DNA of 64,000 bases, taken from NCBI RefSeq assembly GCF_055900595.2, contig NZ_CM148325.1; one strand, written 5' to 3'. Shown one piece after another: positions 1 to 46,578 of the stretch. Made by a program: the position numbers and the translations under genes. The notes under the pieces were generated by a model. That model saw only the letters and a program-made list of their open reading frames with translations. It was not told where the DNA came from and made no database searches. Each line of letters begins with the position of its first letter. The stretch's first letter is position 1.

Positions 1-991
1 GTTGGTCGCTCATCCAGGCATCAATGTTAACGACGTCAATACGCGCCATCTCTTCTCGCGTACACAACCGCTGGAGATTAGCGCGAATATCTGCCGCCAG
101 GTTACGCGTAAAGGTCGTGAAAAGTACCTTCTTACCGGGTTTATCTACCAGACGCTGAGATAACCACCGCGCACGGTGCATTGCAACAACCGTTTTCCCT
201 GTACCTGCACCGCCCAGTACTCGTACCGGACCATTAGCGGGCGACTCCACCAGTTTTCGCTGGCTCGGGTGCAGAAATACACGCCATTTTTCTAAAGGCG
301 CATTAAGCATCTGCAATAGTTCCTGTTCATTTTCAACGACATGGAAGCGACGTTTACTTCGTTCAATCGCCTCCATAAAGTCGTTGGTATCAACAGGCTC
401 ATCACGATGATCGTTAAACTCTTCCAGCACTTCCTGGTAATCCAGCCCTTCTGCCAGCCAGTGCAGAGGTTCCCAGGCTTCTGCTGGCATTATGCTTTCA
501 AGTTGATTAAGCCCGGCTTCATCGGTAAGCGCCATCACCTGATCAATAAAGACAGGCGGCACACCCAGGGCCAGAATCTGTTCCGCGCTGTAAGCTGCGA
601 AGAGTTTCGGTTTATCAACCACCGTTTCCGCTGCCGGTTTGATATAGCTAATATCAATGACCTGAATCGCGCCAGTAACCGGGTGAATCGAACAATCATG
701 CCGCCGCGCCCAGTCATATGCTTCGTCGTGTTTATCCACCCACATCAGCATATACAGAGCACCCTGTTCAGGTTTCAGAACAATGCCGCGATAAGTTTGA
801 TCGATTCGCACCGAATGGACATTTTTACTGCGCGCATCGTGGATCTTTTCATAGTTAAGTCCATTACTGGTCGGGTCCTGACGGAATTTGGAGATGAATT
901 CCTGCACCTTTTTTTGCTGTGCTTTTGGGATCCGCGCGAATGCGCCCAGAAAACCATCAGAAAGTGCCACCTTGGGCGTTTGCACCGTCAT
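1..991 (-). CDS. SF1 (UvrD/Rep-like) P-loop ATPase/helicase, N-terminal part; C-terminus lies beyond the window start
   Basis: Minus-strand frame is open from ATG at 991..989 (MTVQTPKVALSDGFLGAF...) to position 1 with no stop; Walker A GGAGTGKTVVAMHRARW appears after a ~250-aa N-terminal region; start overlaps upstream stop as ATGA. Not in the ORF track because its stop is outside the window. Confidence 0.5.
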   Translation of the reverse strand, partial: MTVQTPKVALSDGFLGAFARIPKAQQKKVQEFISKFRQDPTSNGLNYEKIHDARSKNVHSVRIDQTYRGIVLKPEQGALYMLMWVDKHDEAYDWARRHDCSIHPVTGAIQVIDISYIKPAAETVVDKPKLFAAYSAEQILALGVPPVFIDQVMALTDEAGLNQLESIMPAEAWEPLHWLAEGLDYQEVLEEFNDHRDEPVDTNDFMEAIERSKRRFHVVENEQELLQMLNAPLEKWRVFLHPSQRKLVESPANGPVRVLGGAGTGKTVVAMHRARWLSQRLVDKPGKKVLFTTFTRNLAADIRANLQRLCTREEMARIDVVNIDAWMSDQ

Positions 992-3900
992 TTGTCACCT
1001 CCGGACAGATGTTGCAATGTAATTTCGTCAATTGGCCCGAATGCAACGTGCCAACCCCTGGTTGTGAATAATGGAATAAATTCTTGATTATCAATAATCA
1101 ATGCCCATTTTTGTGATGGCCAGGCGAGATCGGCTTCCGCAATAATTTCACCTTCATCATTTTGCAATTCGTAGCCGAGAGTCGGCGCAGAGAGAGAATG
1201 AGACTGAAGCAACGCGATCTCTTCAGCGCTTAATAAGCCAAACTCAATAATCTCAGCCCAACTTTCATCAGTCTCTGGTACTGCCTCTGGCGTTGCCGTA
1301 ACTTTAACGTCAACGCTTTCCTGCGGTAAATGCACGGCTTTACGGCTGGTAAAGGTCATATCCGGCAGGAACTGTAACAGGTTTACCAGTCGCCAGAAGC
1401 CATTGAGTCCCGCTTCATAACCGTCATCCTGCGTATAGCGATCGTCAAAACAGATATGCAAACGCAGCCAGCTGCGCATTTGTGCGACACTGGTCGTCGG
1501 TTTAATGGCTTGTTGTGGCAACACCGAAGCCAGCTCAATAAATTGCTGCGATGAGTTACAGCTATCGAGTAAACCACCAAAGACAAACGGTTCGTCTGGC
1601 AAAAGCTCTGCTAGCCGCCAGGCTGGCGCGTTTTCCTGCATTTCATAGGCATACTTTTGTTTCGTTCCCGCGTCCTGTGACTTCTTCACATCCAACCACA
1701 CCCAGGCATGTGCAGCAGCCATTCTCTGCCATAACTGCGTTCTTCCGCCCGGATCGGCGAGATAATCCAGCAGCAGTGCAAAACTGTTGCGTTCCCGGAA
1801 CGACGCTTCAAGGGCCGCAAAGTTGGTATCGTGAAACAGGTTATAAAACTTAGGCTGTTTCATATCCGGGTTATGCCCAAGCCCCAGGACATCCTGAACA
1901 TGTTTAAGCCCAGGCTCTTTGAGATCGGCCCACGTGACTGTCCACACCCAGAAATTATCGCTATCCCGAATCGCCTGGCGTTTTTGCACATCCTCTGCGA
2001 CGCTATTTTTGTGAAACGCAAAGCCATCAAGGAAAATAGCTACCGGTTTAATGGCATCAGACTGCATAAGCGGATATAGCACGTAATCCGGGCGACAAGG
2101 GATCCCCACTGCCTCTTTAGCGCCTAAATCCACCTGAGCTTTAAGATGCCAGCTCATCATCGGTTCGCTGCGGGTGTTAATAATCCACCCAGCGCCCTGA
2201 TGCGCGTAACTGCGACTGACAATCAGGTTTTTATTTTCTTGCAGGCAGCTAATAAACCGTTTTTCCAGCTCACTGCCCATCATGGCTTCGAGGGAAATGT
2301 TTTTGATGGAATCAATTACCCGTATCGAATCTCTTGCCTGCAAAATTTTCGCCAGCAAGAGACGCGCCTGATCGCGGGAGACATACTTCATGCGCCCACG
2401 GTCACGGTAAGCGTAAACGCAACGATAACAACCATCTTTATGCGTATCATGGTTGCAACTGCATTCCACTATCGCCTGATAGGCCAGTTCAAGTAATTTC
2501 AGCAAATTGTCGGGAGTGCGCATCAGCTCTTTAAGAGAACCAGTCCCCCCCGGGACGGTATCGTAAATCACCAGATACTGCCGCCAGGATTCGCCTTCAT
2601 TTTCCGGCTCGCGGTACACAACGCCTTTCAGGTGATCGACATTCCCCTTGAAGTAATGTTTAAGGCCGAGCTGGATCGCCGCCCCAAGAGAAGCCTCCAC
2701 GACACGGTCATTACTGTAACTGCTTACCGGGAGCAGAATTCGCAACGCTTCTGACTCCAGCTGGCGATAGAGATAGAGATAATCTTCGAACTTCGCCTTT
2801 TCCGGTTCCGTGCGATATTTGCAGCTCAAATCATGACGTGGTTCATGATCGCGAGGACGCTGTACCATGCCGCACCCCAGGCAAACTTTAAACCCGGTTC
2901 GCTTCTTCGCTTCTCCGGCAATCATCAACTCATTGGCATCATCCGCCATTTTGCCGAAGTTGATATCCCGCAGGGTGACTTTGCTTAAAAATTCAAAACC
3001 AAACGGAACTTCGCCTTCCTCAATCGCGTATGCCGCCGATACATCTTCTTTTTCGAAACTAACCAATAGCTGACGCTGGAAGAAAGCAGGTTCACGGCTG
3101 TCGCTCTCGTCGCTGATCTGGCTATCACGTGCGCTGGCGCGGGCATACACCTGGCGAAGTTTCAGCAGCGTGGTTTTTTGTCCGGCGTCGGCCCACCCCG
3201 GTGTGCCACATTTCGGGCAATATTTATGCTGGTCGCCCGTCTGGTCGATATTTTCGCTGTAGTTACAGTGGCTACAGATACGCCAGTTCTCCGGCTCAGA
3301 GACCTTCAGGTCTATCTGCTCAATTTCAACTTTATGCCCACCGGCATAGAAATTATTCAGCGGAGCCAGCTCAGCCAGCGCCGTTGATGCCGGGCGTTCA
3401 TATTCGAAAGTGGTGTTTTGATATTCACGCGCTTCCCCGCCTTCTTTACGCCGCCAGAGCACAGAACGTAACGTAATACCGGCTTCCGGAAAGGCGTAGT
3501 TAGGCAGCAGACCTTCATCCGTGAGGAAATTCAGCGTCTGCTTATTGTTGATTTGATTGACTAGCGCCATCAGCGCCTGCCGTTCTGAAGTTAACTCGCG
3601 CATATCGCTGTCAAAGTTTTGATCGCGCGGCGCGTTCTCCAGCTTATCGATACTGCGCTTGAGTTTATCGATGCGTGAACGCAGAGATTTGCGATCTTCC
3701 ACCAGCAGTTTTAACGCCTCTTCGATACGCTGCACCAGAGAGCGTTGTCCTGGCGCGCCCTGAAGATAAGACAACAACTGTTGGCGAGTTTCTGCGGCAA
3801 GATCGGGGAAGATCGCCGTAAATTGTGCAGCAATCTCCGCATGATGCTGTTCGATATATCTCAGTAAGTTATACGGAAAACCCGATTTACGCCCGAACTC

Positions 3901-6900
3901 CAGCTCATCCAGCATCTGTTTGACGTTTTTACAGATAGCGGATTCTGGTACACCGGTTTTCACCCAGTTATCCATACAAAAAGCTGCCAGCTGGCGTTCG
4001 AGAATAGCCGTTGCATTGAGGAAGACGCCAGGAGCCTGCACCTGGCCCTGCATCATCTCCAGCGGTTCTTCAAAGAAAAACTGATCGTGCGGGTTCCCTT
4101 CTGCCACGGTAATGTTTAACGCGTTACCATCTTTACGACCGGCGCGACCAATACGCTGCAAGTAGTTGGCCTGAGCAGGTGGGACAGAACAGAGTAAAAC
4201 GGTGGAAAGATCCCCAACGTCAATACCCATCTCCAGCGTCGGTGTTGCCGACAACAGGTTGATATTCCACGGTTGGTTGCCGCGGTAGAACGATTTTTCG
4301 GTGGCTTCGCGATCTTCACGGCTAAGCAGCCCCGTGTGTTCTGCGCCCTGCACGCGCGCGATGTCCATGTTCTCCCAACGCCAGGTCGCCATATTGTCGA
4401 CTTCCTGGTAACGACCTTCACAACGTAAAGAGAGACAAGGCGCATTACGCCACTGCCAGCCTTGATCGGCCGGAGCCCGGACAACCTCACGGCAACATGA
4501 ACAATTAAGCTGAACGACGTCACGGCTCACCACCAGCGCAGAAGGCACCAGTCCCCAGGCTTCACGCCCTTTGGTGTCAAAATCTTTTACTACTCCGGCT
4601 ATTTTCAACGCCGTAAACAGGCGTCGTAACACTGTTTCCGCAACGCTACTGATAAACAGATTATTGCCGTTACTCAGCGTGCGATTGATCCAATGCTGAT
4701 ACCAACTGGGGTTAGACTTCGCGCCAATCAGGCGATGGAAACCATTAATTTTTTCAAACGACGCATAAGCCGGTTTACGCGTTTTCGGACCGATAGAAGG
4801 CATATAGCGCGAGGTACGCTCTTTTTGCGTCATCATAAAGGTCGTGCCATCACGGCGATAACTTTCGAACGTCGGATGCATAACGGCCCCGGCCTGGCGT
4901 TGATACCAAATAACCCCCAGCGCCAGGTGCGCGACCTGCTCGACGCTCACACCGGACATCTCATCACCCAGCTCTTCACAAAGCTGTTGATGCAGGGCGG
5001 TAATTGCCGGATTAAAGCGTTCTTTATCCACTCCGGCAACGGCATAACCGGTGGCTTCCAGCGTACGTCCGATACGCGCGCGCAGGGTAAATTCGCTGTA
5101 CACCTCCCAGTCGAGGCGCAGGGAAACCAGCTCCGGCAGATCGGAGTTCTCCGCCAGTTTGCCTTCATTTTTCAGTGTCTGATAATCATTCAGCCACTGC
5201 ATATTTGGTGCGATGAAGTTCGCTGCAAAATGAGCATCGTCCGGTGAACGTTCACGCGTTTGTTGGCAAACACGCGCCGCGAACGCATCCAGCGGTAATG
5301 TCTCTTTTTCGCCAAGAACACTGGCGATTTGCCCACGAATCATCAGCGGCCAGGTACGGGCAGTAAAGAAGCTGGCACGATGCGCGGCGTCTTGTACCGA
5401 GTCAGAAAACGTAATCAGCTTTTTATGTTCGTTGAACTGGCTGCCATAAAGCTGGTGAATCATCACCGCCGACAGACTGGCAGCCCGTGACCCCAGAATC
5501 GAAATCCCCTGTTTGCTGTTGCAGTACGGGCATTCATTAGCAAACTCCAGCTCGTCCTTACGCTCTTTGAGCATATCCGGGATCAGTACCTGCAACAGTT
5601 CCGTATGACCGCAATGTCCACACTGGACGCTGGACTGTCGGTTCAGTTTCAGACAGATAGGGCACAGTTTCTGGTGTGCGCCACTGACCGCTTTTTCGTT
5701 GTTATCCGGGAAAGCAAGGACGATGGAGCGCCCTTTTTCAAAGAACTGGCGATAAATGCCGTCGAGGTCTGTTTCCAGCTGAACGCTTTGCCCATGACGC
5801 AGGCTGGCCCAGCCGGTTGCGTGGCAGTCACGGCAGTGGATAACCGGCAAATAGTGTTCGCGATCTTCCACCGCCACATCATCGGCAAACACCAGTCTCG
5901 GCGTTTTCGCCACGCTGGCGACCAGACGACGCATCTCACGAAGCCACAACTGGGAACGCAGTTGCACAAACGGCAACACCGGGCGCGCTTTCTTCGCCTG
6001 GAGACGTTTTTGCCGATCGTGTTCCGTTTCCGGTACTTCGAGACGTGCCTGCGCGATCAGCGCCAGAATGCTTTGCAGCACGCGTCGGGCATGGTCGGCG
6101 CTTTCTGCCAGCATGACCTGGAGATTTTCCAGACACTCTCGTTCAGAGAGGATCCCGCCTTGCAGATCATGGAGTAAGACATGCATCACGCTGTGGCGGC
6201 GTAACAGTGACCCCAGCGCAATACGCTTTTCGCGCCCGTCGTCGCTCTCCAGATCGTCCGGGAGTTGCAAGTCGCTGTCGGAGAACCACAAAGGGATTTG
6301 TCCGTTGAGATACGCCACCGGGGTAGCGTAACTCTGCGGGTCCAGCGCCGAAGCGACCTCCGGCCCCGGATACTGACTGTACGCAATGGCGTAATCCTGC
6401 AAGTACTCCGCTGCCGTGTAGCGATCTTCGCGAATAACGGCGTCATCGGTAAACGGCTGGTCAAAGATTGTTTTTGCGTAATCGAGCAGTTGCCCCAGTT
6501 CGTCGCCGACGGTAGCTGATGTCCCGACGCAGGCGAATCGTTGGTTATCCACACCTATGTGATGCTTCAGACGTCGCACCAGACAGGCCAGATCCGACCC
6601 TTGCGCGCCATCAAACGTATGCAATTCATCCACGACCAGGTAACGCAATGAACCGGGCTGGTTGTAACGCCAGAGCGGCTGATCGCCAGGGCGCATCAGT
6701 AGGTAGTCGAGCATTTTGTAGTTGGTCAACAGGATGTCCGGCGGGCTTTCGCGCAGCGTGTGCTTACAGGTAATGACCTTTTCTGCCGACATTTTTTTGC
6801 TGGGTTCGATTTCGCTGTCGCCGACAAACAATCCGACGGTCACCTTGCCATGCAGTTGTGGATCGCTGGCGATGGTTTTGGCGAAACGGCTGGCCTGATC

Positions 6901-7329
6901 GGTTGCCAGGGCGTTCATCGGGTAGATGATAATTGCTTTAACCCCGGCTTGTGACGCGCCCGCGCAGTGGTTGAGCAGCGGGAACATAAAGCATTCTGTT
7001 TTACCGGAGCCGGTACCGGTAGCGACCAGTGTCGGCTGTGGCGCGTCGCATCCCAGACGCTGAAATGCCCGGGCCTGATGCGCGTGCGGCGGGAACGGCA
7101 GCGTCAGATTAGGGAAAAAATTCAGCGGTAAGTCACTTTTACGAAACGGCAACTGGGCGGAAAGGTATGGTCCTTTCAGCAGCGTTTCGGGCTGGGCCAG
7201 AAATTGCTCCAGCATTGAGACATTATCGTTATTCTCACCGTTAAACAGCGGGCTGTTTAGCGGGAACGCCGCCCGTAAAAAGGCGGCAACGCTGTCGGCG
7301 ACCTGCCGACTGACAACGGACGGCAACAT
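988..7329 (-). CDS. Giant SF2 DEAD/DEAH-type helicase with Cys-cluster (Zn-ribbon/DUF1998-like) regions, DruE/DrmA-like, 2113 aa
   Basis: Motif I GTGSGKTE, motif II VVDELHTF, distant motif VI QRIGRAGR; several CxxC pairs (CRDCHATGW, CPICLK...CGHCGH, CSHC...CPKCG, CLGCG); start overlaps upstream stop (TGATG at 7327..7331). Confidence 0.65.
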   Translation of the reverse strand: MLPSVVSRQVADSVAAFLRAAFPLNSPLFNGENNDNVSMLEQFLAQPETLLKGPYLSAQLPFRKSDLPLNFFPNLTLPFPPHAHQARAFQRLGCDAPQPTLVATGTGSGKTECFMFPLLNHCAGASQAGVKAIIIYPMNALATDQASRFAKTIASDPQLHGKVTVGLFVGDSEIEPSKKMSAEKVITCKHTLRESPPDILLTNYKMLDYLLMRPGDQPLWRYNQPGSLRYLVVDELHTFDGAQGSDLACLVRRLKHHIGVDNQRFACVGTSATVGDELGQLLDYAKTIFDQPFTDDAVIREDRYTAAEYLQDYAIAYSQYPGPEVASALDPQSYATPVAYLNGQIPLWFSDSDLQLPDDLESDDGREKRIALGSLLRRHSVMHVLLHDLQGGILSERECLENLQVMLAESADHARRVLQSILALIAQARLEVPETEHDRQKRLQAKKARPVLPFVQLRSQLWLREMRRLVASVAKTPRLVFADDVAVEDREHYLPVIHCRDCHATGWASLRHGQSVQLETDLDGIYRQFFEKGRSIVLAFPDNNEKAVSGAHQKLCPICLKLNRQSSVQCGHCGHTELLQVLIPDMLKERKDELEFANECPYCNSKQGISILGSRAASLSAVMIHQLYGSQFNEHKKLITFSDSVQDAAHRASFFTARTWPLMIRGQIASVLGEKETLPLDAFAARVCQQTRERSPDDAHFAANFIAPNMQWLNDYQTLKNEGKLAENSDLPELVSLRLDWEVYSEFTLRARIGRTLEATGYAVAGVDKERFNPAITALHQQLCEELGDEMSGVSVEQVAHLALGVIWYQRQAGAVMHPTFESYRRDGTTFMMTQKERTSRYMPSIGPKTRKPAYASFEKINGFHRLIGAKSNPSWYQHWINRTLSNGNNLFISSVAETVLRRLFTALKIAGVVKDFDTKGREAWGLVPSALVVSRDVVQLNCSCCREVVRAPADQGWQWRNAPCLSLRCEGRYQEVDNMATWRWENMDIARVQGAEHTGLLSREDREATEKSFYRGNQPWNINLLSATPTLEMGIDVGDLSTVLLCSVPPAQANYLQRIGRAGRKDGNALNITVAEGNPHDQFFFEEPLEMMQGQVQAPGVFLNATAILERQLAAFCMDNWVKTGVPESAICKNVKQMLDELEFGRKSGFPYNLLRYIEQHHAEIAAQFTAIFPDLAAETRQQLLSYLQGAPGQRSLVQRIEEALKLLVEDRKSLRSRIDKLKRSIDKLENAPRDQNFDSDMRELTSERQALMALVNQINNKQTLNFLTDEGLLPNYAFPEAGITLRSVLWRRKEGGEAREYQNTTFEYERPASTALAELAPLNNFYAGGHKVEIEQIDLKVSEPENWRICSHCNYSENIDQTGDQHKYCPKCGTPGWADAGQKTTLLKLRQVYARASARDSQISDESDSREPAFFQRQLLVSFEKEDVSAAYAIEEGEVPFGFEFLSKVTLRDINFGKMADDANELMIAGEAKKRTGFKVCLGCGMVQRPRDHEPRHDLSCKYRTEPEKAKFEDYLYLYRQLESEALRILLPVSSYSNDRVVEASLGAAIQLGLKHYFKGNVDHLKGVVYREPENEGESWRQYLVIYDTVPGGTGSLKELMRTPDNLLKLLELAYQAIVECSCNHDTHKDGCYRCVYAYRDRGRMKYVSRDQARLLLAKILQARDSIRVIDSIKNISLEAMMGSELEKRFISCLQENKNLIVSRSYAHQGAGWIINTRSEPMMSWHLKAQVDLGAKEAVGIPCRPDYVLYPLMQSDAIKPVAIFLDGFAFHKNSVAEDVQKRQAIRDSDNFWVWTVTWADLKEPGLKHVQDVLGLGHNPDMKQPKFYNLFHDTNFAALEASFRERNSFALLLDYLADPGGRTQLWQRMAAAHAWVWLDVKKSQDAGTKQKYAYEMQENAPAWRLAELLPDEPFVFGGLLDSCNSSQQFIELASVLPQQAIKPTTSVAQMRSWLRLHICFDDRYTQDDGYEAGLNGFWRLVNLLQFLPDMTFTSRKAVHLPQESVDVKVTATPEAVPETDESWAEIIEFGLLSAEEIALLQSHSLSAPTLGYELQNDEGEIIAEADLAWPSQKWALIIDNQEFIPLFTTRGWHVAFGPIDEITLQHLSGGDK

Positions 7330-10300
7330 CAGGCGCTCTCCTTATCTTGTGCAAAGAACGCCCAGGCCACTTTGTAATCGTCTTCGCGATCCGGCTTGAT
7401 AAACGGAGCCTGCCAGGTGACGGTACGGCGCTCGCCTTCGTCGCTGCGGGTATAGTCATCAAAGGTGACGCTGACGGTACCGGTTTGCAGATGTTTGACA
7501 TCATCCCAGCCGATAGCCTGATCGGTGCAGTCACCGCCGGTCCAGTCCGGGCTGTCGACGTTAAAGACAAAGCCGTTTTTCAGGTCAGCTTTACGCGCAG
7601 TGCGAGGCAAGCCAACGCCCACCAGCCCTTTGCTTGGGGTAAAGATAATGCGACCGTTTTGATCGTACCAGGTATCCGCTTCGTACTGGCGCATCACCGG
7701 GAACTGAACGCGATAAATGGTAAGCAGTTCTTCGAGGGTTAACCCTAGCGCCTGCGCCACCAGTACGTCGATTTCCACCAGCGCCTGACGACGACTGTAG
7801 TCAGAGCGTAAGGCGCAGTTACGCTGCCACTCTGGGGTCAGATTGGTGAAGAAATCCTGGGGAAGCGGCGGGAGATCGCGGCTCCAGCGCTGGGTGTTGA
7901 AGTCTGGGGTGTAGCAGGATTGCCAGAGATCAGCGTAATCTTTCGTTAACACATTCAAAGCTAATGCTCTTGAGTTTGCACTCATTAACTCAACATAAGG
8001 GAAGCCACGCAATGTTGATTCATAAACATCCGCCCGCCCTGTTGTTTTCAAATAAAAATCAGCCACTATTGAATGGCAAAATGCAGAGAAACTTAGCAGG
8101 TTTATTGGCTCTCTAAATGTTGTTGAGAGTACAGGGTGTATATGAGCAACGTGCTTTGGAACTATGCTGGATATCATCGAGCGTTCTGATGATGCCCCAA
8201 ACATTCTTCGATTAACAAAACGATAATAGTCCGTCACCTTCCTCGGCTCGTCTTCATCCTGCTCTTTCCACGAAACCCGTGGGGTGCGCTTTGCATACTC
8301 CTGTGCATCACAGGCTGGAATATAGTTAGTGCGCGGCAAATAGTCGTCGGGCAGAGTTAGCAATTCTAGGTTATCGTATGCTTTATTCGTGTCACAAACC
8401 GCTCTAGGCGTATTGTAGAAAGGATTGCCAACAAAAAAATGAGGGCCAGACAAAACCCATTGTGATGCTTCTTCCGGGAACTGTGTATGTCGCTCAATTG
8501 TACCATCGCTTTGCTGATTAGTTTCATGCCACATTTCTAGAGAATAATATTGCCCCTGCAAATCACCTAATCGCCTAGGTTGTTTCGCAAACTTTTCAAG
8601 TACTGCAACCAATTGAGTAGCATGTAACGCAGGAAGACGGGCTTCATGTGCTGTAGTGCCAGCACTATCATAGAGACGCGAGAAAAGACCTAATTGCTTT
8701 AAATTTACATGCAAGACTCGATCGAAATGTCCCTGAAAATTCCATTTAACCTTTATTTTACCATCAATTTCAGTTTCTTCTTTTATCCCCGGAACAATGC
8801 CTTCCCCTTTATGTTCAAAACACGCATCAATAGTTTGAGGAATAAATAAATTTGCTATATTTGAGAATGCCACTATCTGAGAATAGGGGCCATACACATT
8901 AATGCTAAATAATGTCTGGTTATGCACCTCAGTGAATAATTTCGTTTCATTAATAAACTGAAAATGCGCCCTAAGCCTCGGATATACCGACGCACGCAGC
9001 TGCCCGCCTTTTGGGTCATCATAAATCCCTTCCGGGTGCAGGAACCCTGCCACGCCTTTCTCTGCCCCCAGACGCCAGGCCTGCGGCAGGAAGCATTTAT
9101 ACAAGTTGGTCTGCACCCCGCGCAGTACCGGGTAGTTCTGCTGCGCATTGAGGAAGTTTTGCATCCCTTCACAGCCTTCATACTCGCTGCGCCAGGCCGC
9201 TTCCAGCGCCGGGATCTGGTTAAAGGTATCAATACGCAACGTTGCCAGCTTCGATGCACTCAGCTTACGCAGCACAAATTCCGGCTCGTAATCACCCAGC
9301 ACGCCCGCTTCCTGCCATTCCACTTTCAGCCACGGCGGGTTTCCGAGCATCAGGTCAAAACCGCCACGCTCGGCAAACAAGTCGCAGAACTCCAGATCCC
9401 AGTGGAAGAAACGGTGCTGCTTTCTCAGGGCATCGACAATCGCCAGACGCGGCAAATGACGGAACAACACCTCGGTTTTCAGACGACCAGCAACGGAAAA
9501 CAGCGAAGACTCTTCTCGCAGCAGGCCGTCTTCGGCAAACAGATCGCCAGTGGTGTGCTCCGCAACTTCAGTGACTTTTTCCGTGATTACAATCCCGTCG
9601 AGCAGGGTTTCAATCTCAAACAACCAGGTGCCGCGATCCGGTAACTCATCGGCTTTGTCGATCGGCCAGAACCACAGCGCGCACCAGTAGTCCATCACCC
9701 AACGCAGCTTCTGGTAGGCGCTGTTATCTTCAAGACGACCGCTAAAGGTTTCATCTTTACTGCTCAGCGAAGAACGCGTCTGCTCGCTGTTTTCTGCCGG
9801 CCACACCGGGTAGCTGTCGGCGGTTTTCAGACGTTCTGCTTTAAGTTGCTGGCGATAGGTGTTCCACAGAGCTTCCACCTTTTCGCTGATACGCTGCACA
9901 TCAGCAATCTCATGCCCGGCAAAGCTTTTAATAAACTCTTTGCGCCAGCTGTCCAGGGCTTTGAAGTCATCCGGATAACGCTGCTTAACAGTTTTATCGC
10001 TGTAGTTAGCCATACCGCCGTCGGGCAGCAGGAAGTGAAAAATCTGCGTCTCTTCACGCGGCGTGTTCATCGCCAGTTCGACCGGCTCGCTGTTAAGCCA
10101 GCTCGGATCTTTGGCTTTTTTGTAGGTCAGTTCACTCTTGTTGAACACCTGACGGCGCGCGCCCACCAGTGAGTTACCGCAGTGCAGCTGGTAACCAAAC
10201 CACGGTACAAAGGCATCGCCACTGATGGCGTTCAACCACAGCGACACTTCCGCCAGTTCCACCGCCACCGGGTTTAAGTCCACGCCGAAAACGTTGTTGT

Positions 10301-12251
10301 CGGCAATGTACATTTTCACCCGCTGTAACTCCTGGGTGTAACGATCCTGCGGAATACGGCGACCTTCCGCCTGCTGCTTGTGGAACAGATACGCTTCCGC
10401 CAGCTGGTTGATGGCTTCGTTAAGGAACGCCGCGCTGCCCATCGCCGGTTCGCACACGGTGAGGTTTAAGATGGCATCAGCTTTGGCGTGCGGATCGCTA
10501 ATGGGATCAATCTGCTCCTTAAACAGTTCTTTCAGGGCATATTTAACCAGTGAGCGGGTCAGCACTTCCGGGGTGTAATAAGAGGCAGATTTCTCACGGT
10601 CGCGCCCGGCCATACGGTAGATAAAACTGCCTTTGCGGTGAATGCGCAGACTGCCGTCTTTCTCGTAGACCTTCTCGTCTTCGTGGTATTTGCCAATCTC
10701 ATCCTTACTGACGAAGTAACCCGTCTCCAGCTCGTTAAACTCTTCCCCGGCTTTCTTCACCTCGTAGAGATCTTCGCTGGCGAAGAATCCGCGATAGGAA
10801 AGCAGCGCCTCATACACCGCACCTAACTGGTTGATACCCAACTGGCGATAAGAAATACGTCCGCGGCGGTTAAAGCGCCCTTTGCCCGGGCGGCTTAACG
10901 ACATCGCCTGGATAATCTGTTGCAGGGTTTCGTTACGGAATACCACGCGGTTAAGAATGCGGGTGTTGTTGGCATCGAAAAGATGACTTTCCAGACGCGG
11001 GACGCTGAACTGATGACTATGGATGGTGATCCGGTCGCCGCTCTCCAGGTCACTCTGTATTTTCACGCCGCCGTTGTAGCCTTCGCGCACCAGTTTAAAC
11101 AGCATATTCAGGCTGTCGTGGAAGTAGCGCCCGTTGCGATCTTCTTCGCTGGTCAGCGGGATCATCTCCAGATCGCGCAACGTTTCCAGGCTGTAACCTT
11201 GCAGATAGGTTTTGGCGGTCATTGGCGCATAACCCAGCTCCGGGCGCGCTTCAATGTAGAACAGGAACAGCAGGCGGTACATGTAACGCAGACATTCGCG
11301 GCTCAGTTCATCCGGGTCCACCGCACGGTTACCGGTATAGTTTGCCAGGCCACGGTCGATCAGATAATGCATCGCTTCGTTGCCCAGCAGCTCAATACTT
11401 TCGCGCAGGGCATATTTCAGATCTTCCGAAACACCAAACGCATGTTTGTGCGAATTGTCATCCAGCGAGTCAAGATAAGGTGCCCCACTGCCCGGCAGCA
11501 GCGAATCTTTATGTAGCAACACTGCCGTCGCTTTCAGCGTATCCGTTTCACGACGACTTAAAATCTCTTCAAAATCAAAACGTAGCAGACGGTTTTGCGC
11601 CCACTTAGTACGGTCCAACAACAATAGCTGACGGTTACCGAGCAGCAGCACAAAACGCGGCGGTTCATTTTGAGTGAAGACCGCCGTAGAGAGCAGATCC
11701 TGCCAGCTGCGATATTCACCGTTGGCTTTTTTGCGCAGGCTGTCGCGCTTATGTTTGTCGGTATCCGCCGGGAATTGCGCGGTCAGTAAAGAGAGCGCCA
11801 GCGGATCCAGCGTTCCTTCTTCCTGATCGTGTGCTTCAACAATCCACAGCCACGGGCTACCGTCAGTGCTGTTGTAACGCGCCAGTACCGGCAGTGGTGT
11901 ATCGTCATCCAGCATTTGGATCTGCGGCGTAATTTCGTAGCCCAGCGCCTTTAACAATGGCTGCCAGCGATTACGTTGATCGGCCAGACGCTGCGGGATC
12001 TGACGCTGTTTTTCGTGCTCGGCAAGTTTGCGGAAAAACTCAGTCGCCAGACTGTTAAACTGGTTCCACGGAGCGCGGTATCCCGGCTCTACGTCTTTGC
12101 CCTGTTCACGAGCGGCACGCTCCGCTTCACGCGCTGCATTTTCCTGGGCTATCCAGGGTTCCAGCACATCGCGGATATCACTGGTGAATACCTCACCCAA
12201 ATAGTGGTTAGAGTAAAATTCGTTTTCGTTATTAATACCGACCAGCGCCAT
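7329..12251 (-). CDS. Large N6-adenine DNA methyltransferase (Eco57I/type IIG-like gamma class), 1640 aa
   Basis: AdoMet motif I-like VCEPAMGSAAFLNEA; catalytic-type motif GNPPWLK; HCGNSLVG motif; long N- and C-terminal extensions; start 2 nt after upstream stop. Confidence 0.65.
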   Translation of the reverse strand: MALVGINNENEFYSNHYLGEVFTSDIRDVLEPWIAQENAAREAERAAREQGKDVEPGYRAPWNQFNSLATEFFRKLAEHEKQRQIPQRLADQRNRWQPLLKALGYEITPQIQMLDDDTPLPVLARYNSTDGSPWLWIVEAHDQEEGTLDPLALSLLTAQFPADTDKHKRDSLRKKANGEYRSWQDLLSTAVFTQNEPPRFVLLLGNRQLLLLDRTKWAQNRLLRFDFEEILSRRETDTLKATAVLLHKDSLLPGSGAPYLDSLDDNSHKHAFGVSEDLKYALRESIELLGNEAMHYLIDRGLANYTGNRAVDPDELSRECLRYMYRLLFLFYIEARPELGYAPMTAKTYLQGYSLETLRDLEMIPLTSEEDRNGRYFHDSLNMLFKLVREGYNGGVKIQSDLESGDRITIHSHQFSVPRLESHLFDANNTRILNRVVFRNETLQQIIQAMSLSRPGKGRFNRRGRISYRQLGINQLGAVYEALLSYRGFFASEDLYEVKKAGEEFNELETGYFVSKDEIGKYHEDEKVYEKDGSLRIHRKGSFIYRMAGRDREKSASYYTPEVLTRSLVKYALKELFKEQIDPISDPHAKADAILNLTVCEPAMGSAAFLNEAINQLAEAYLFHKQQAEGRRIPQDRYTQELQRVKMYIADNNVFGVDLNPVAVELAEVSLWLNAISGDAFVPWFGYQLHCGNSLVGARRQVFNKSELTYKKAKDPSWLNSEPVELAMNTPREETQIFHFLLPDGGMANYSDKTVKQRYPDDFKALDSWRKEFIKSFAGHEIADVQRISEKVEALWNTYRQQLKAERLKTADSYPVWPAENSEQTRSSLSSKDETFSGRLEDNSAYQKLRWVMDYWCALWFWPIDKADELPDRGTWLFEIETLLDGIVITEKVTEVAEHTTGDLFAEDGLLREESSLFSVAGRLKTEVLFRHLPRLAIVDALRKQHRFFHWDLEFCDLFAERGGFDLMLGNPPWLKVEWQEAGVLGDYEPEFVLRKLSASKLATLRIDTFNQIPALEAAWRSEYEGCEGMQNFLNAQQNYPVLRGVQTNLYKCFLPQAWRLGAEKGVAGFLHPEGIYDDPKGGQLRASVYPRLRAHFQFINETKLFTEVHNQTLFSINVYGPYSQIVAFSNIANLFIPQTIDACFEHKGEGIVPGIKEETEIDGKIKVKWNFQGHFDRVLHVNLKQLGLFSRLYDSAGTTAHEARLPALHATQLVAVLEKFAKQPRRLGDLQGQYYSLEMWHETNQQSDGTIERHTQFPEEASQWVLSGPHFFVGNPFYNTPRAVCDTNKAYDNLELLTLPDDYLPRTNYIPACDAQEYAKRTPRVSWKEQDEDEPRKVTDYYRFVNRRMFGASSERSMISSIVPKHVAHIHPVLSTTFREPINLLSFSAFCHSIVADFYLKTTGRADVYESTLRGFPYVELMSANSRALALNVLTKDYADLWQSCYTPDFNTQRWSRDLPPLPQDFFTNLTPEWQRNCALRSDYSRRQALVEIDVLVAQALGLTLEELLTIYRVQFPVMRQYEADTWYDQNGRIIFTPSKGLVGVGLPRTARKADLKNGFVFNVDSPDWTGGDCTDQAIGWDDVKHLQTGTVSVTFDDYTRSDEGERRTVTWQAPFIKPDREDDYKVAWAFFAQDKESA

Positions 12252-12253
12252 GA

Positions 12254-15112: not shown

Positions 15113-15182
15113 CGGTTTTTCTGTCTATTTGGGGCAGTGGCGGTAACGTCATCCTGAAAAATGTGGCGCGGCACACTGCGAT

Positions 15183-15216
15183 AAAAAAGAGGGCCTTAAA
15201 GATATCATGAAGGCCC
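15183..15216 (-). terminator. Putative rho-independent terminator downstream of the DruE-like gene
   Basis: Plus-strand AAAAAA run (15183..15188) followed by hairpin gggcctt / aaggccc (15191..15216); on the minus strand this reads as a stem-loop followed by a T-run. Confidence 0.4.
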
Positions 15217-15335
15217 CCGGCAAAGTGACAAAATGGGAGGGAATGCGCATAATTTGCGCATGATTTTCAAACAAAAATTATTAAAAAGTGAGCTGGGTCA
15301 ACTCCCCTGGAAGATATCCCCAGGGGAGCAATTAT

Positions 15336-30250: not shown

Positions 30251-31180
30251 TTGAACAGCAGAAAATTTGCGAGCATGATCGCAATTATTTCACTGCCAGG
30301 GATATCAATGGCTTCCAGTAAATCGCTACAGCAGGCAATTGCCAATATAAAAATCTGGCACAAGGGTGAACAGCGCGCGCCGCATAAGCCATTGTTATTG
30401 CTATACGTATTAGCGGGATACCTGAATGGACATCCGCGCCTTTTCGATTATGGCTCGGAAATCTACGAACCTCTGCACAGTTTACTGGAACGTTTTGGGC
30501 CACAGCGTTCACAGTACCGACCTGATATGCCGTTCTGGCGATTACAAGGCGACGGATTCTGGCAATTACACAATGCCGAGCTTTGCTCAACAGCAGGGAG
30601 CAGCCGACAACCGCCAGTGAAGGAACTGAACGAATACCACGTTGCAGGCGGTTTCGATGAACAGCACTACGCCCTGGTAACCGGCAATAAAAAACTCATC
30701 AATACTCTGGCGCAACAGATACTCGAAGCGCACTTCACCGAGAGTATTCAGGAAGAAATTGCTGACGAGCTGGGTTTTGATCTCCAGCAAATCCGTAAAC
30801 AGCGCGACCCGTTATTTCGCAAAAATGTATTACGCGCTTATAAATACCAGTGCGCGATATGTGGCTTTAATATGCGCCACGATGACACCACCGTCGCGTT
30901 GGAAGCGGCGCATATAAAATGGAAACAGCACGGCGGTCCTTGTGAAATTCCTAATGGCCTGGCGCTTTGCGCAATTCACCATAAAGCCTTTGATAAAGGA
31001 TCGATTGGCCTGGATGAAAATATGCGGGTACTGGTCTCGGATGCGGTAAACGGCGGAGGGATCGTTGAGAAACTATTCTGGGATTTTGACGGGAAAACTA
31101 TTGCGTTGCCGCAGGTGCGTAAAAATTACCCTTATGAGGGGTTTGTGGAGTGGCATCGGAAAGAGGTTTTTAGGGGGTGA
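30251..31180 (+). CDS. HNH endonuclease, putative restriction-type; true start may be an internal Met
   Basis: HNH motif CAICGFN...EAAHIKWKQHGG...LCAIHHKAFD at the C-terminus; divergent from the neighbouring HNH gene. Confidence 0.5.
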   Translation: MNSRKFASMIAIISLPGISMASSKSLQQAIANIKIWHKGEQRAPHKPLLLLYVLAGYLNGHPRLFDYGSEIYEPLHSLLERFGPQRSQYRPDMPFWRLQGDGFWQLHNAELCSTAGSSRQPPVKELNEYHVAGGFDEQHYALVTGNKKLINTLAQQILEAHFTESIQEEIADELGFDLQQIRKQRDPLFRKNVLRAYKYQCAICGFNMRHDDTTVALEAAHIKWKQHGGPCEIPNGLALCAIHHKAFDKGSIGLDENMRVLVSDAVNGGGIVEKLFWDFDGKTIALPQVRKNYPYEGFVEWHRKEVFRG

Positions 31181-31798
31181 GTTTGATAACTATCGCAGTA
31201 TGTTCAATATTGCTGACATAATCAGTGCAGGATCTTGCCGCTAGTTTACAACCCGCCTTCGATAGCGGCGCAAAACGAGTTCTGTTGCCGATATCCTCGG
31301 CTATGGATATTCCAACAGTTCCGGCAGGTTTACCAAGTTTCAGGTAAGTTTTTACTCAGAACCGGTTGATGCGGTTTATAAGGCGCTGGATGTGAATTAA
31401 CACATTCCTCAGCTTATTTACAAAAGGATTATTCCCATTTGATATAATATCAGTGCCAATTTACTTTTTTCAATGGAATATATCTCGGCTAAATAACAAT
31501 AAAACTTATCGCTAATGGATTAAATAAACAATTTTCTAATTTATTTCACCACCTTTGATATAGAAATTGATGGTGTTGTCGCTGCCATTGCTTATGGTGA
31601 TGATAAAATCCACGTTTCTGGATCGGTGCGTAGAAAATCATCACTACCTTGATATTTTGATGCGATATGATCATACCGTTCCGTAGTACCAATTTCAACT
31701 TCAGGCTAAACCCCAACATTAATAAAATTAGAGTTATTCACTGATTATATTATCAATAATATAATCAGTGAATAACATGGAGTATATAATAAATTGCT

Positions 31799-33844
31799 CT
31801 AATCATTTCCCTTACGAATATATGGGCCAAAAGCCCAAGAATCATAATAAGGGTGATGGACTAATTTTTCATTAAATCGAACACTATAAGTTAATTTTTT
31901 TATATTTTTACGTACAGCATTAATACTGGGCAAAGAGGAAAGATAATCTATAAACTTATCGATAGTGATTTTCCCTTCGCAACACTCAAACCCATCAATG
32001 ATATTTTTCGCCATTTTTCCATTTTCATTTGTTTGATATATCACTCCAGGTATTCGTTGAAAAAAACTAGATAATGCATATTTGTCCGCTACATATGTAT
32101 CATCCACATGATATTTCCCACCGAGCATAGTTGTAGTAACAATAAGCTTATACACACCTTTGGGTTGCCATGTTGATGGTAGTTCGAATTCTTTAATGAT
32201 CACATCAAGATGATTAAGATAATGTTCAGAAATTCGATTTATTTGTTGAAAATAAGAACGCATAAATTTATTATTATGATCATGTATTAATGAGCTATCT
32301 CCAACGATGTTACACACTTGCTGATAGTACTTACCATAATATATTGGTTGACCATTTGATTTTAGTTCTGTAAAAATCAAACAATCATCCAGGAGAATCA
32401 CGCAATCGCACTGATAATTAGCATGAGCATCAATTGGAGAAGCTTTAATCCCCGCATCACGAACTTGTTTTATAAATTGTTGCTCATGAAATCGCCCTTT
32501 ACTTGCTTGAGAAATTTTTTTGGAACCAAATAATGACATTAGAGAGCGAGTCACTGAGCTATTTGCTATTAATGCAGGCATTAAGCATAAACCGTCCATA
32601 CAGGGAATAAATGGGCAATCATTAAGATCATGTGATTTTGAATTGAAGGTAAAATAATCTATCAGTTTTTTTGCTGCATCTGCTGCAATCCCCTTACGTT
32701 GAAAGAATGATAACCAACTCTCACGGTTTTTTATGACCAGCCAGCGATCCAACTGTAGGGGTATAGGTTTTGTCGATGAAAATCTTTTGCTCATTTCTTC
32801 TTTAGATAACTCGACTAAACATTGATAAGCGTGCACCCAATTAAATAATGATATATTCCCATATTCTTCATGAAGGTCATCAGGAGACATATTTTCCAAC
32901 TCGCTTAAATGAAATGAGCTAAAAACGCCATCAGAATTTAAGTAAGATGGCATATGATCCTTTACCCAACTATTTAGATGAAAATGTTTGTTACTAAATT
33001 CATGAACTTCGCTATATAGATGTGACGCTCTCATCATTAGTCTATTTCTTGCAATCTCATAATCTCGGTATAAACAAAAACTATCAACCTCAAGAGAGTA
33101 AATGTTATTATCCAATTTTGTAAATACTGCACTACTTAGTCTGAAAAAGTCTCTTACTCTGCTTAATGAGTCAAAAACATTCCACTCATTAAGGTACCCT
33201 CCCATTGAAAGCAAGGTTTGTTTATTCACACAAGAAGTTAGTTTCAATGGCCCATGAGTCCGTAAATAAGAAAATATTCTTCCGGTGTAATTGGCTACCT
33301 CATCAAATGCCCTATCGATAACTCGAAAATATTCGATATCAGGTTCAGCATGAATATTAATATTTTCAGTAACGATAAATAATGGAAAAATCCTCTTCAT
33401 TTTTTTAGGATCATTGACCACAACCAAGGATGATAATGATGATAAAAACATCTCACAAAACATGATGAGATTAAGTATTAATGCATGTGATTTTTTTGTA
33501 TTTTTACGCCAAATACCAGCACATTTTGCAGCCGCAAAGAAAGAATTATTTATATCATGCATAATTTTACATTGACTCTCGAACTCAGAGATTAGTTCAA
33601 TGTTATCAGGAAATGAGTTTACTAGCTCATTAATACATTTTTTGAATGTATTGTTATACTCAACTTCAGTCTGAACTGAAAATCTATTATAATAGATGGA
33701 AGATATTCTCAGCACATCCAAGGCGATATCTATACTAATATCATCTCTTTTTATGTACTCACAAAAAAAAAGAACAAAACTGTTTCGGGTCGTTAGCAAG
33801 ATTACTAATTCTAGTGGTATCATAAACTTTTTCCATTTTTCCAT
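31799..33844 (-). CDS. Hypothetical protein, 681 aa, AT-rich orphan
   Basis: Long uninterrupted ORF, K/N/I/F-rich composition typical of low-GC foreign DNA; no motif recognised. Confidence 0.45.
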   Translation of the reverse strand: MEKWKKFMIPLELVILLTTRNSFVLFFCEYIKRDDISIDIALDVLRISSIYYNRFSVQTEVEYNNTFKKCINELVNSFPDNIELISEFESQCKIMHDINNSFFAAAKCAGIWRKNTKKSHALILNLIMFCEMFLSSLSSLVVVNDPKKMKRIFPLFIVTENINIHAEPDIEYFRVIDRAFDEVANYTGRIFSYLRTHGPLKLTSCVNKQTLLSMGGYLNEWNVFDSLSRVRDFFRLSSAVFTKLDNNIYSLEVDSFCLYRDYEIARNRLMMRASHLYSEVHEFSNKHFHLNSWVKDHMPSYLNSDGVFSSFHLSELENMSPDDLHEEYGNISLFNWVHAYQCLVELSKEEMSKRFSSTKPIPLQLDRWLVIKNRESWLSFFQRKGIAADAAKKLIDYFTFNSKSHDLNDCPFIPCMDGLCLMPALIANSSVTRSLMSLFGSKKISQASKGRFHEQQFIKQVRDAGIKASPIDAHANYQCDCVILLDDCLIFTELKSNGQPIYYGKYYQQVCNIVGDSSLIHDHNNKFMRSYFQQINRISEHYLNHLDVIIKEFELPSTWQPKGVYKLIVTTTMLGGKYHVDDTYVADKYALSSFFQRIPGVIYQTNENGKMAKNIIDGFECCEGKITIDKFIDYLSSLPSINAVRKNIKKLTYSVRFNEKLVHHPYYDSWAFGPYIRKGND

Positions 33845-34525
33845 ACATCCTATTGTCTAAATTACTATAAAACTAGCCACTTAACTAATAATTATAAATT
33901 TCATCTTTTACACCTTGCATTTTTATAACCAATGAAATCTACAACAAGCAACTGATGGATAATCCGATATTGGTCGCATTTAATGGCATGGTAGCAAAGT
34001 TTTCATCACATACCTCCTTTGCACCAGAATAAACGCCAGAGACCTGAAATTGCGAGTACACTACAGAAATTGTACTGCCGGTCCCATCAGCATAAAACCA
34101 TAGTTACACAGGTAATCATCATTATTCACCAAGATAATAAATATTATTCGGTAGAATAGCGTTCTCAGGTGGTCAGTAAAATTGTCTTCAACAAGATGTC
34201 TGCGCATCTCGTCTGCTAGCCCTACATAACTGCTCTCGACCGAAACTATTTATTGAATGTTCACCAAGGTGGGCGTGGAGACAAAATGACGTCTTTTGAT
34301 ATTAGCTACCTGAGCCACATGGTCAAAACGTTCAAGTAGCATAGCGAAACCACCCTGCCCACGTAATGTGGACGATGCAGCTCCCAGCCAGAGCAAACTT
34401 GGGACCATCGACTACAAAATGAAGAATACTGAACTGCTTTTCTGGCAGGCCTATATACTGCACGGATATGGGTGATTTCAGACACAAAAAAAGCCGCTCT
34501 TAAGCGACTCGATTTGCATACGGTG

Positions 34526-34610
34526 TGGTGCCGAAGGCCGGACTCGAACCGGCACGTATTTCTACGGTTGATTTTGAATCAACTGCGTCTACCGATTTCG
34601 CCACTTCGGC
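34526..34610 (-). tRNA. leuX: tRNA-Leu (anticodon CAA)
   Basis: Reverse complement reads GCCGAAGTGGCGAAATCGGTAGACGCAGTTGATTCAAAATCAACCGTAGAAATACGTGCCGGTTCGAGTCCGGCCTTCGGCACCA, 85 nt with CCA end and CAA anticodon in the loop. Confidence 0.9.
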
Positions 34611-34805
34611 ACTGAAGAGGTATGCGGAAAACGTTGTGGATTATACCTGTCACGCGCCACCATGCAAGCGCCAGCTTGCTCCCACCTCGCTAAGTGCTGA
34701 AATTTTCAGCATTGCATACAGCGATGTGTAACCTTTGTCACACTCCAGGCACCCCGCCCTACCATGCTCTACACTTCCCAGACAACACCAGAGAAGGACA
34801 AAAAT

Positions 34806-45063: not shown

Positions 45064-46578
<1,515 letters not shown>

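Follow-up and report, generated by a model that had tools for sequence, protein, structure and literature searches.

An integrase-free defence island at leuX in Escherichia coli, probably composed of two layers with different histories

The window analysed here, a 64,000-nt stretch of RefSeq contig NZ_CM148325.1 (assembly GCF_055900595.2), carries a defence island on the left side of leuX. We consider it probable that this region represents E. coli defence hotspot #37 on leuX, free of an integrase and with an empty attachment site, and that it consists of two layers of differing history. The first layer (28884..34525, 5.6 kb) would be the old leuX flank, comprising a nanM'/'nanS scar, an HNH endonuclease and a phosphorothioate-dependent restriction endonuclease (PT-RE), a BrxL relic, a NERD-like gene and the native leuX terminator. 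[quoted passage not shown]

The leuX gene, encoding tRNA-Leu(CAA) (34526..34610, minus strand, Rfam tRNA match), marks the boundary of the conserved chromosome. By synteny with annotated genomes, the core genes ahr, idnKDOTR, yjgR, lptGF, pepA, holC and valS lie to its right, and the DNA to its left is variable throughout the window, as anticipated by an earlier sequence-only reading, which took everything beyond the leuX 3' end to be accessory. Hotspot #37 has been described at leuX and reported to favour Zorya (Hochhauser et al. 2023, PMC10121019; review PMC12707154). Synteny together with presence/absence counts shows that the window shares its layout, with leuX as anchor and a defence content that varies in the interval from leuX/ahr to the nan/fim genes. 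The review places a mobilising integrase at the tRNA anchor (PMC12707154), whereas here there is no integrase and the site is unoccupied.

The NERD-like gene and leuX are separated by a 681-bp spacer (33845..34525). The sequence-only reading had described ~680 bp without an integrase-sized ORF, and the longest ORF is indeed only 59 aa. A tblastn search with the P4-like leuX integrase of CFSAN061763 returned no window match at E ≤ 10 and, over the window and the distal region of strain EC42405, only chance matches (E > 1) and no integrase remnant. In K-12, intB lies beside leuX as stated in that reading, in the form of a pseudogene ~260 bp away. The final ~52 bp of the spacer (34474-34525) contain the leuX intrinsic terminator, with its stem at 34491-34510, and are common to K-12; in a promoter and terminator scan, only this terminator exceeded expectation, and Rfam detected no structured RNA in the spacer or island besides leuX.

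The last 24 nt of leuX (34526-34549) form the attachment core, which is repeated at element borders in other strains: perfectly in Sakai, with one substitution and one deletion in CFSAN061763, and with two deletions in 536. A fuzzy search (≤4 errors) detected no second copy, either in the window or across 50 kb on the distal side of EC42405; the same search recovered the repeats of Sakai and CFSAN061763, and that of 536 at ≤5 errors. The far end of the island (the last ~4.5 kb and the border) lies beyond the window and was inferred from EC42405, the closest complete genome; its identity to the window is 98.9% across the alignable parts of the island, 99.9% at positions 1-1200 and only 95-98.5% in the flanking core. 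From leuX past nan, fim and beyond, EC42405 contains no P4-type integrase and no second leuX 3' end (≤4 errors per 24 nt). Of the two hallmarks of a tRNA-integrated island, a tyrosine integrase beside the tRNA is thus absent from the window and the EC42405 distal region, and a distal direct repeat of the tRNA 3' end is absent from a far border that is read only in this proxy. The joint absence of integrase and repeat is also what an immobilised element predicts, and would agree with a rival account in which 1..34525 is a single tRNA-integrated element that lost its integrase by deletion and then gathered defence systems one by one in place. Evidence given below makes this account unlikely.

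The attachment site is unoccupied in the window, where the NERD-like gene, leuX and ahr are contiguous. The contiguous 25000-35000 stretch occurs in 7 of 5,426 genomes and the junction of the NERD-like gene with leuX alone in 104, so that this flank directly adjoins leuX in only ~2% of complete genomes, a count confined to the NERD flank among integrase-free flanks. In 86 of 93 block-bearing genomes, block and leuX are kept apart by an inserted element, and the match to the window stops 24 nt into leuX. Elements thus occupy the leuX 3' end in most carriers, and the idea that the site itself is dead could not be sustained. Integrases were present in both inserted elements inspected (2 of the 86 genomes). 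At this junction, CFSAN061763, 536 and Sakai each have a leuX 3' repeat, either partial or perfect. The element of CFSAN061763, ~48 kb long and situated between leuX and the same block, has an integrase at its leuX end and a CbtA/YeeU module at its far end, and terminates at a degenerate 23-nt leuX repeat; the PAI II junction of strain 536 is analogous.

The ARMADA type II genes lie on the minus strand in the order armA-armB-armC-armD, as assigned from domain matches and gene order, with armD only partly in the window. armA (12254..15112, 952 aa) encodes a DrmD/BrxHII-like SNF2 helicase (PADLOC DrmD, E = 1.5e-99), armB (7329..12251, 1640 aa) a PglX/DrmMI-like adenine methyltransferase (PADLOC type IIG REase/MTase, E = 6.6e-288; DrmMI, E = 5e-57), and armC (988..7329, 2113 aa) a YprA/DruE-like DExH helicase with a C-terminal nuclease region (PADLOC DruE3, E = 2.1e-103), where PADLOC also matched a ZorE-like HNH stretch to residues 2021-2096. 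The first 330 codons of armD (1..991), which continues past the left window end, encode a GajB-like UvrD helicase (PADLOC GajB, down to E = 3e-9) and are 99.9% identical to a UvrD-helicase gene of EC42405 that overlaps armC by 4 bp. The arm genes are ~98% identical to Sakai ECs5261-5264, the O157:H7 ARMADA system, and armC shares 98.5% nucleotide identity with ECs5263, corresponding to the z5901-class armC of EDL933. Comparison of alleles revealed a hypervariable segment in armB (residues ~1100-1450, nt ~7900-8950); GC falls to 0.42 at 8001-9000, within the same gene. Assignment to DISARM class 1, which comprises drmD, drmMI, drmA, drmB (a separate DUF1998 protein) and drmC (PLD), was rejected: armA scored 349.7 bits against NCBIfam DISARM_DrmD, below the cut-off of 610, and in place of separate drmB and drmC genes there is a single DruE-like fused helicase.

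Adjacent to ARMADA are druE (15336..21659, minus strand, 2107 aa), encoding the Druantia type III helicase-nuclease (PADLOC DruE3, 2173 bits, full length), and druH (21650..25009, minus strand, 1119 aa), of the STY4851/ECs_5259 family (PADLOC DruH3, 2545 bits, full length) and named in the RefSeq annotation. The order druH then druE, the latter a large YprA-like helicase, is that of Druantia type III, and the two genes overlap by 10 nt. Divergent from druHE, zorA2 (25221-26873), zorB2 (26880-27587) and zorE (27591-28694) follow one another on the plus strand (25221..28694), the order of Zorya type II. The sequence-only reading had called these genes Zorya-like, and the full-length PADLOC matches (E = 2.6e-302, 2.2e-104 and 1.9e-176, respectively), together with orthologues named in RefSeq, bear this out.

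Base composition divides the island into at least three blocks, as that reading had proposed, here measured as per-gene GC and third-position GC (GC3). The armD fragment, armC, armB and armA have GC 0.50-0.53 and GC3 0.55-0.65, followed by druE (0.488 and 0.46), druH (0.397 and 0.32), zorA/B/E (0.38 and 0.30-0.32) and the 681-aa NERD-like gene (0.328 and 0.26), which is the orphan gene correctly singled out as very AT-rich; the HNH and PT-RE genes have GC 0.49, and the core genes mostly 0.47-0.56. The proposed GC-balanced block spanning 1..25009 had to be redrawn, since druH groups with AT-rich genes such as Zorya. The different GC of each system suggests different sources, consistent with gathering in place by a single element. 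In 1-kb windows, the island has a mean GC of 0.466 (sd 0.070, minimum 0.315) and the core side, also heterogeneous, 0.494 (sd 0.054, minimum 0.345); the island is not definable from composition alone. The sequence-only reading had named uniform composition, or an intact integrase with att repeats, as decisive against it; GC in the window is not uniform, and no such integrase or repeats were found in the window or in EC42405.

The array of all three systems was found in ~500-520 of 5,426 genomes, and the NERD flank in 331. The three systems move as one block at 97-99% identity in ~500 genomes, and the block has a further chromosomal location near cadC; assembly therefore preceded arrival, contrary to piecemeal accumulation of cargo in place. 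The array is 98.7-99.0% identical to that of ATCC 8739 and 97.4-98.5% identical to Sakai ECs5256-5264. Its borders are made of nan sequence. A pseudogene consisting of a 5' fragment of nanM, the nanC stop codon and intergenic bases (28884..29399, plus strand; 94% identity to nanM of K-12, 536, SCU-115 and EC42405) accompanies the array, and is kept beside the cadC-side copies of ATCC 8739, 2452 and D7, which are bounded by IS1 and ISKpn26. Next to it is the right copy (29396..29567, plus strand) of a ~185-bp direct repeat formed by the nanS 3' end and downstream sequence, 85.9% identical to positions 41491-41674 of L002. SCU-115 has a single copy of this repeat (L017 9681-9865), which matches both flanks. 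The ~32-kb array is thus bracketed by a nanS 3' repeat, with copies 86% identical, and a nanM fragment, and not by the tRNA repeat expected at the borders of a tRNA element.

On the leuX side of the scar, a 216-aa HNH endonuclease gene (29521..30171, minus strand; Pfam HNH, E = 2.5e-4, and weak type IV REase matches) is the partner of a gene for a phosphorothioated-DNA-binding type IV restriction endonuclease (30251..31180, plus strand; RefSeq start ~30308). The latter matched NCBIfam NF045808 at 437.9 bits (cut-off 180) over profile positions 2-284 of 284, a class read from sequence. Judging from homology, fold and gene neighbourhood, the pair would probably add modification-dependent restriction. 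The HNH gene is truncated in 536 and deleted in Sakai, and PT-RE remnants adjoin nanS in K-12. The C-terminal relic of BrxL, a BREX Lon-like protease, follows (31225..31347, plus strand; PADLOC BrxL, E = 1.4e-7, profile positions 622-657 of 680), and annotations of related genomes give it as a pseudogene truncated at its N-terminus. Strains 536 and SCU-115 have the proximal 5.6 kb (28884..34525) but not the large array, in the arrangement nanC-nanM-nanS'-HNH-PT-RE-BrxL'-NERD, and K-12 has remnants of this stretch.

The occurrence of this flank without the array, and the nanM and nanS fragments that separate the two layers, argue against one element spanning the region, as does the co-movement of the three systems in two contexts. 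Of the proposal of an immobilised, decayed element that accumulated cargo, the mosaic character and the missing integrase of the leuX defence island are upheld, and the single decayed element is not. The comparison with O157:H7 Sakai bears on the same point. SpLE6/OI-172 has the same gene order as the window, with 97.4-98.5% nucleotide identity from armD to zorE, and shares the nanM scar, the PT-dependent endonuclease and the left border at the nanS 3' end. At the place taken in the window by the NERD-like gene and the native terminator, SpLE6 has a P4-like integrase truncated to 276 aa (ECs5253) and a perfect leuX repeat of 24 nt; it also lacks the HNH gene, has a 339-bp deletion in the nanM scar and a different armB variable region, and SpLE5 lies between its block and leuX. 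This integrase vestige adjoining the same array would favour a single decayed element, but it replaces the NERD-like gene, with HNH also gone, which fits later deletion from a different, adjacent element. In uropathogenic strain 536, the distal flank of PAI II536 matches the window from nanS' through HNH', PT-RE and BrxL' to NERD and a degenerate leuX 3' repeat (98.9% identity to 30198-34549); unlike the window, 536 has no ARMADA, Druantia or Zorya array, its HNH gene is truncated, and PAI II separates the flank from leuX.

ARMADA islands at tRNA-Leu have been read as "frequently immobilized" mobile elements with integrase vestiges in a 2025 preprint (PMC12458937), whose model of successive mobile elements inserted, immobilised and then selected for supports the single-element account. 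The element shown there as immobilised (Bell et al., PMC12458937, Fig. 5B) is the same array at the same site, and the idea that later active elements enter at the tRNA ahead of an immobile block is also applied here. Integrase fragments were often found in that study, whereas the window has none. For ARMADA copies at tRNA-Phe, it proposes separate delivery, whereas their nanM scar points to descent from the nan/leuX context. Some ARMADA-bearing elements at tRNA-Leu were described as "not immobilized" (PMC12458937); an active element of this kind at leuX was sought in three further carriers (2452, D7 and ATCC 8739), and none was found, all copies being cadC-side and IS-bounded.

It is very improbable that the array has kept its mobility in the absence of a leuX integrase, either as an IS1-bounded composite or as a circle that recombines once within the ~185 bp of nanS homology, perhaps with a helper acting in trans: the bracketing direct repeat, the IS-flanked copies with their nanM scar near cadC and the satellite-like mobilisation proposed for related elements (PMC12458937) speak for it, but IS elements and transposases are absent from the window and the EC42405 island, the repeat copies, only 86% identical, make a recent Campbell-type integration in this lineage hard to uphold, and a chromosomal rearrangement between IS1 copies could also yield the cadC-side copies.

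The 681-aa gene (31799..33844, minus strand) encodes a predicted NERD-like PD-(D/E)xK nuclease with a helical N-terminal half. The protein had no match in PADLOC, NCBIfam, Pfam or PDB sequence profiles, and was identified only by family alignment and fold search, which revealed a conserved D...ExK catalytic motif in a restriction-endonuclease-like fold. Pfam NERD (PF08378) was unmatched even at E ≤ 10, and only one of 44 family members reached E ≤ 0.001; the protein is a fold-level relative of NERD and not a Pfam member. Its family, with members of ~650-700 aa, comprises 224 representatives at 50% identity in Proteobacteria and Firmicutes. Of four homologue neighbourhoods that were informative, three contain defence or mobile-element cargo: a type I RM system with Cap4, Gabija in a Tn7-like element, and an integrase with a KAP NTPase and Mrr. 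The gene and its spacer are at least 99% conserved in 331 genomes. Homology, fold and neighbourhood suggest that it probably adds a stand-alone nuclease. Tentatively, it may be the E. coli representative of an undescribed family of single-gene anti-phage nucleases, in which a helical N-terminal sensor or regulatory half precedes a C-terminal PD-(D/E)xK half resembling NERD. Its D-13-ExK spacing equals that of ZwsA, which defends against RNA phages and has a NERD domain (bioRxiv 10.64898/2026.04.06.716636); none of 242 retrieved proteins shows the residue numbering described for ZwsA, and kinship to it is a lead only.

In the two-layer reading, the three large systems would defend against phage and partly synergise. 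Defence and synergy of the same systems have been shown experimentally with near-identical copies from EDL933, NCTC 12900 and ATCC 8739, whose ARMADA copies, with an anti-phage activity that depends on all four proteins, are alleles other than that of the window (bioRxiv 10.1101/2025.09.22.677730; PMC12458937). The block would have no means of moving itself, and integrase-bearing elements would come and go at the leuX 3' end ahead of it. Its architecture suggests that homologous recombination in the conserved flanks, nan/fim on one side and leuX/ahr on the other, is its most likely means of spread, occasionally with IS elements. An ultimate origin of the array in a tRNA-integrating element is plausible, with no trace in the window; the Sakai integrase vestige and the tRNA-Leu elements described as not immobilized (PMC12458937) speak for the involvement of a mobile element in its delivery at some point.

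The leuX hotspot, the three-system array and the immobilised-element reading are already published; the two-layer structure and the array borders made of nan sequence are new details. The empty attachment site allows the flank to be separated clearly from the delivered element. Leads that could be tested cheaply are the NERD-like nuclease and the hypervariable segment of armB, and the nan-sequence borders, together with the nanM scar in the cadC copies, bear on how integrase-less defence islands spread.

The defence island at leuX is real and was correctly located by the sequence-only reading. The tRNA-Leu(CAA) gene leuX, the sole tRNA placed by ARAGORN and Rfam, lies at 34526..34610 on the minus strand. 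To its right, ahr, idnKDOTR, yjgR, lptGF, pepA, holC and valS follow in the order of annotated E. coli genomes, so the variable side is 1..34525. The far border of the island is outside the window; EC42405, which among complete genomes comes closest to the window (95-98.5% identity in the core), served as a proxy and has the same gene order. Its island ends at a nanS pseudogene ~38 kb from leuX, and no integrase or transposase was found between leuX and the fim operon.

PADLOC and NCBIfam searches identified a four-gene operon for three helicases and a methyltransferase: the helicases are of the SNF2 (DrmD/BrxHII-like), YprA (DruE-like, with a nuclease region at the C-terminus) and UvrD (GajB-like) types, the last of them continuing past the left window end, and the methyltransferase resembles PglX/DrmMI. 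This operon is ARMADA type II (armABCD), and is accompanied by Druantia type III (druH, druE) and Zorya type II (zorA2, zorB2, zorE). Two preprints of 2025 gave ARMADA type II its name and tested it; they also describe the Zorya-Druantia-ARMADA array on EDL933 O-island 172, in NCTC 12900 and in ATCC 8739, and report additive or synergistic protection (bioRxiv 10.1101/2025.09.22.677730; PMC12458937). The window array is 97.4-98.5% identical to ECs5256-5264 of O157:H7 Sakai and 98.7-99.0% identical to that of ATCC 8739.

In the leuX-proximal flank, PADLOC, NCBIfam and Pfam searches revealed a 216-aa HNH protein and a phosphorothioated-DNA-binding restriction endonuclease (PT-RE; NF045808, 438 bits, cut-off 180), putative functions in the case of these small genes. 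Between the PT-RE gene and a 681-aa ORF (31799..33844) lies a 40-aa relic of the C-terminus of the BREX Lon-like protease BrxL (BrxL'; 31225-31347, plus strand). The relic persists in pseudogene form in 536, SCU-115 and EC42405 and points to the loss by deletion of a BREX system that this flank once carried. The 681-aa protein, earlier called an orphan, had no match in PADLOC, NCBIfam or Pfam. Its family nevertheless comprises 224 cluster representatives at E ≤ 1e-3, with D480, E493 and K495 invariant in a 44-member alignment, a PD-(D/E)xK signature. AlphaFold2 produced a confident model (pLDDT 89.8, pTM 0.89), and AFDB neighbours from Salmonella, Bacillus, Listeria and others are automatically named "NERD domain-containing protein"; Pfam NERD makes weak contact with only a few family members. 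Among distant homologues, one is isolated; the others neighbour a type I RM system plus Cap4, a Gabija system carried by a Tn7-like element, or an integrase together with a KAP NTPase and Mrr. The label orphan therefore does not apply to this protein, an uncharacterised candidate defence nuclease encoded by what we refer to as the NERD gene.

Gene-by-gene calculation of GC (GC3 in brackets) recovered the compositional blocks noticed by inspection: 0.50-0.53 (0.55-0.65) for armD'/C/B/A, 0.488 (0.46) for druE, 0.397 (0.32) for druH, 0.38 (0.30-0.32) for zorA/B/E, 0.49 (0.49-0.51) for the HNH and PT-RE genes and 0.328 (0.26) for the NERD gene. The AT-rich genes read as Zorya-like are the Zorya type II genes, and the description of 1..25009 as GC-balanced stands in part, but druH falls into the AT-rich set. 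The core side is also uneven (1-kb GC s.d. 0.054, minimum 0.345), and the island would not be definable by composition alone. An AT-rich 525-aa ORF beyond argF (53861-55438, minus strand, GC ~0.34; also 54124-54795), presumably yjgL from its position, is only 77% identical to its EC42405 counterpart, against 95-98% for its neighbours, and marks a second variable spot, a small one. On the core side, the Rfam matches are ordinary features: the antisense RNA Ysr276 inside pepA (45625-45819, minus strand), naRNA4 between pepA and holC (46655-46730, minus strand), and a magnesium riboswitch (63343-63458, minus strand) upstream of an 898-aa ORF at 60553-63249, presumably mgtA.

Comparison with other leuX islands supported a mosaic, but one in which the array borders nan sequence, not tRNA sequence. 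Strains 536 and SCU-115 carry nanC-nanM-nanS'-HNH-PT-RE-BrxL'-NERD without the large array, and K-12 retains PT-RE remnants beside nanS. Relative to SCU-115, the window lineage has a ~32-kb insertion containing two hypothetical genes, armDCBA, druEH, zorABE and a nanM 5' fragment (~94% identical to each nanM allele checked), flanked by two copies of a 185-bp nanS 3'-end segment that share 86% identity. The array-free strains and the nan-bracketed insertion argue for a two-layered island: a 5.6-kb flank adjoining leuX, present in 331 of 5,426 genomes at ≥99% identity, and the array, present in ~500-520.

The nanM 5' scar (window 28884-29567) is also carried by the array copies that lie in the cadC/tRNA-Phe region, bounded by IS1 and ISKpn26, in ATCC 8739 (locus L008, 31719-31963), 2452 (L009, 36229-36478) and D7 (L018, 30720-30968). 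The shared scar suggests the nan/leuX context as the source of the cadC-side copies, whereas separate delivery to the tRNA-Phe region was inferred previously (PMC12458937).

The 681 bp between the NERD gene and leuX contain no ORF longer than 59 aa, confirming that no integrase-sized ORF adjoins the tRNA. The intB invoked for K-12 is present ~260 bp from leuX, but as a pseudogene. Searches by tblastn with a leuX integrase as query gave only chance matches in the window and the EC42405 distal region. The leuX 3' 24-mer (≤4 errors) did not recur in the window or in 50 kb of the EC42405 distal side; the same search recovered the known repeats of Sakai and CFSAN061763 and, with ≤5 errors allowed, that of 536. 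Because the window runs unbroken from the NERD gene, across the native terminator (stem 34491-34510), into leuX and ahr, its attachment site is intact and empty, not destroyed. This contiguity is shared by 7 genomes for the whole stretch (25000..35000) and by 104 for the junction alone. Window 25000..35000 is held at ≥80% in 93 genomes; in 86 of these the match ends 24 nt into leuX, with another element between block and leuX.

In 536 this element is PAI II. In CFSAN061763 it is ~48 kb long: its integrase adjoins leuX, a CbtA/YeeU module occupies the opposite end, and it terminates at a degenerate 23-nt leuX repeat. The element brings its own terminator-like hairpin 3' of the rebuilt tRNA (locus L004, 31575-31623, against window 34474-34525); the two regions are ~89% similar over 150 nt including leuX and differ in stem sequence, so that tRNA termination would be preserved after integration. 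The Sakai order is array, PT-RE, truncated 276-aa P4-like integrase, perfect 24-nt repeat, SpLE5 (with its own integrase) and leuX; the NERD and HNH genes are both absent. The SpLE6 "integrase" ECs5253 (locus L007, 33347-34174) is an N-terminal fragment abutting the PT-RE gene, where other strains carry BrxL', the NERD gene and the native terminator. The junction is consistent with a deletion by which the old flank became joined to the integrase of a later element, and SpLE6 as annotated may therefore be composite.

The locus is "hotspot #37" of an E. coli defence-island survey that noted that Zorya prefers this site (PMC10121019), and a 2025 review ranks it the most occupied, 97% of isolates having defence genes there (PMC12707154). 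The content of the island and its general interpretation are already known. The proposal of an immobilised, decayed element agrees with the published model for the same island (PMC12458937), and the lack of an intact integrase or leuX repeat in the window and EC42405, like the non-uniform composition, is in keeping with it; the stretch is, however, not one element. Accumulation of cargo in place was not borne out: the big array came pre-assembled. A mobile-element origin of the array, of which no trace is left in the window, is plausible because of the Sakai integrase vestige and the "not always immobilized" cases (PMC12458937). The block would now be inherited passively, with exchange through homologous recombination between conserved flanking sequences, while integrase-bearing elements enter and leave at leuX in front of it.

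A mosaic hypervariable stretch was observed in armB (window 7900-8950, aa ~1100-1450), overlapping a GC dip to 0.42. Its protein identity to the EC42405 and Sakai alleles is 30-36%, against 98-100% elsewhere in armB, and it closely resembles the 2452 allele. The term "TRD" is absent from the ARMADA preprint, where "target recognition" and "specificity" are used only incidentally (PMC12458937). Of remaining interest are the NERD-like nuclease, the nan-bounded borders and this armB segment, which looks like a shuffled target-recognition region and as such would imply differing methylation specificities.
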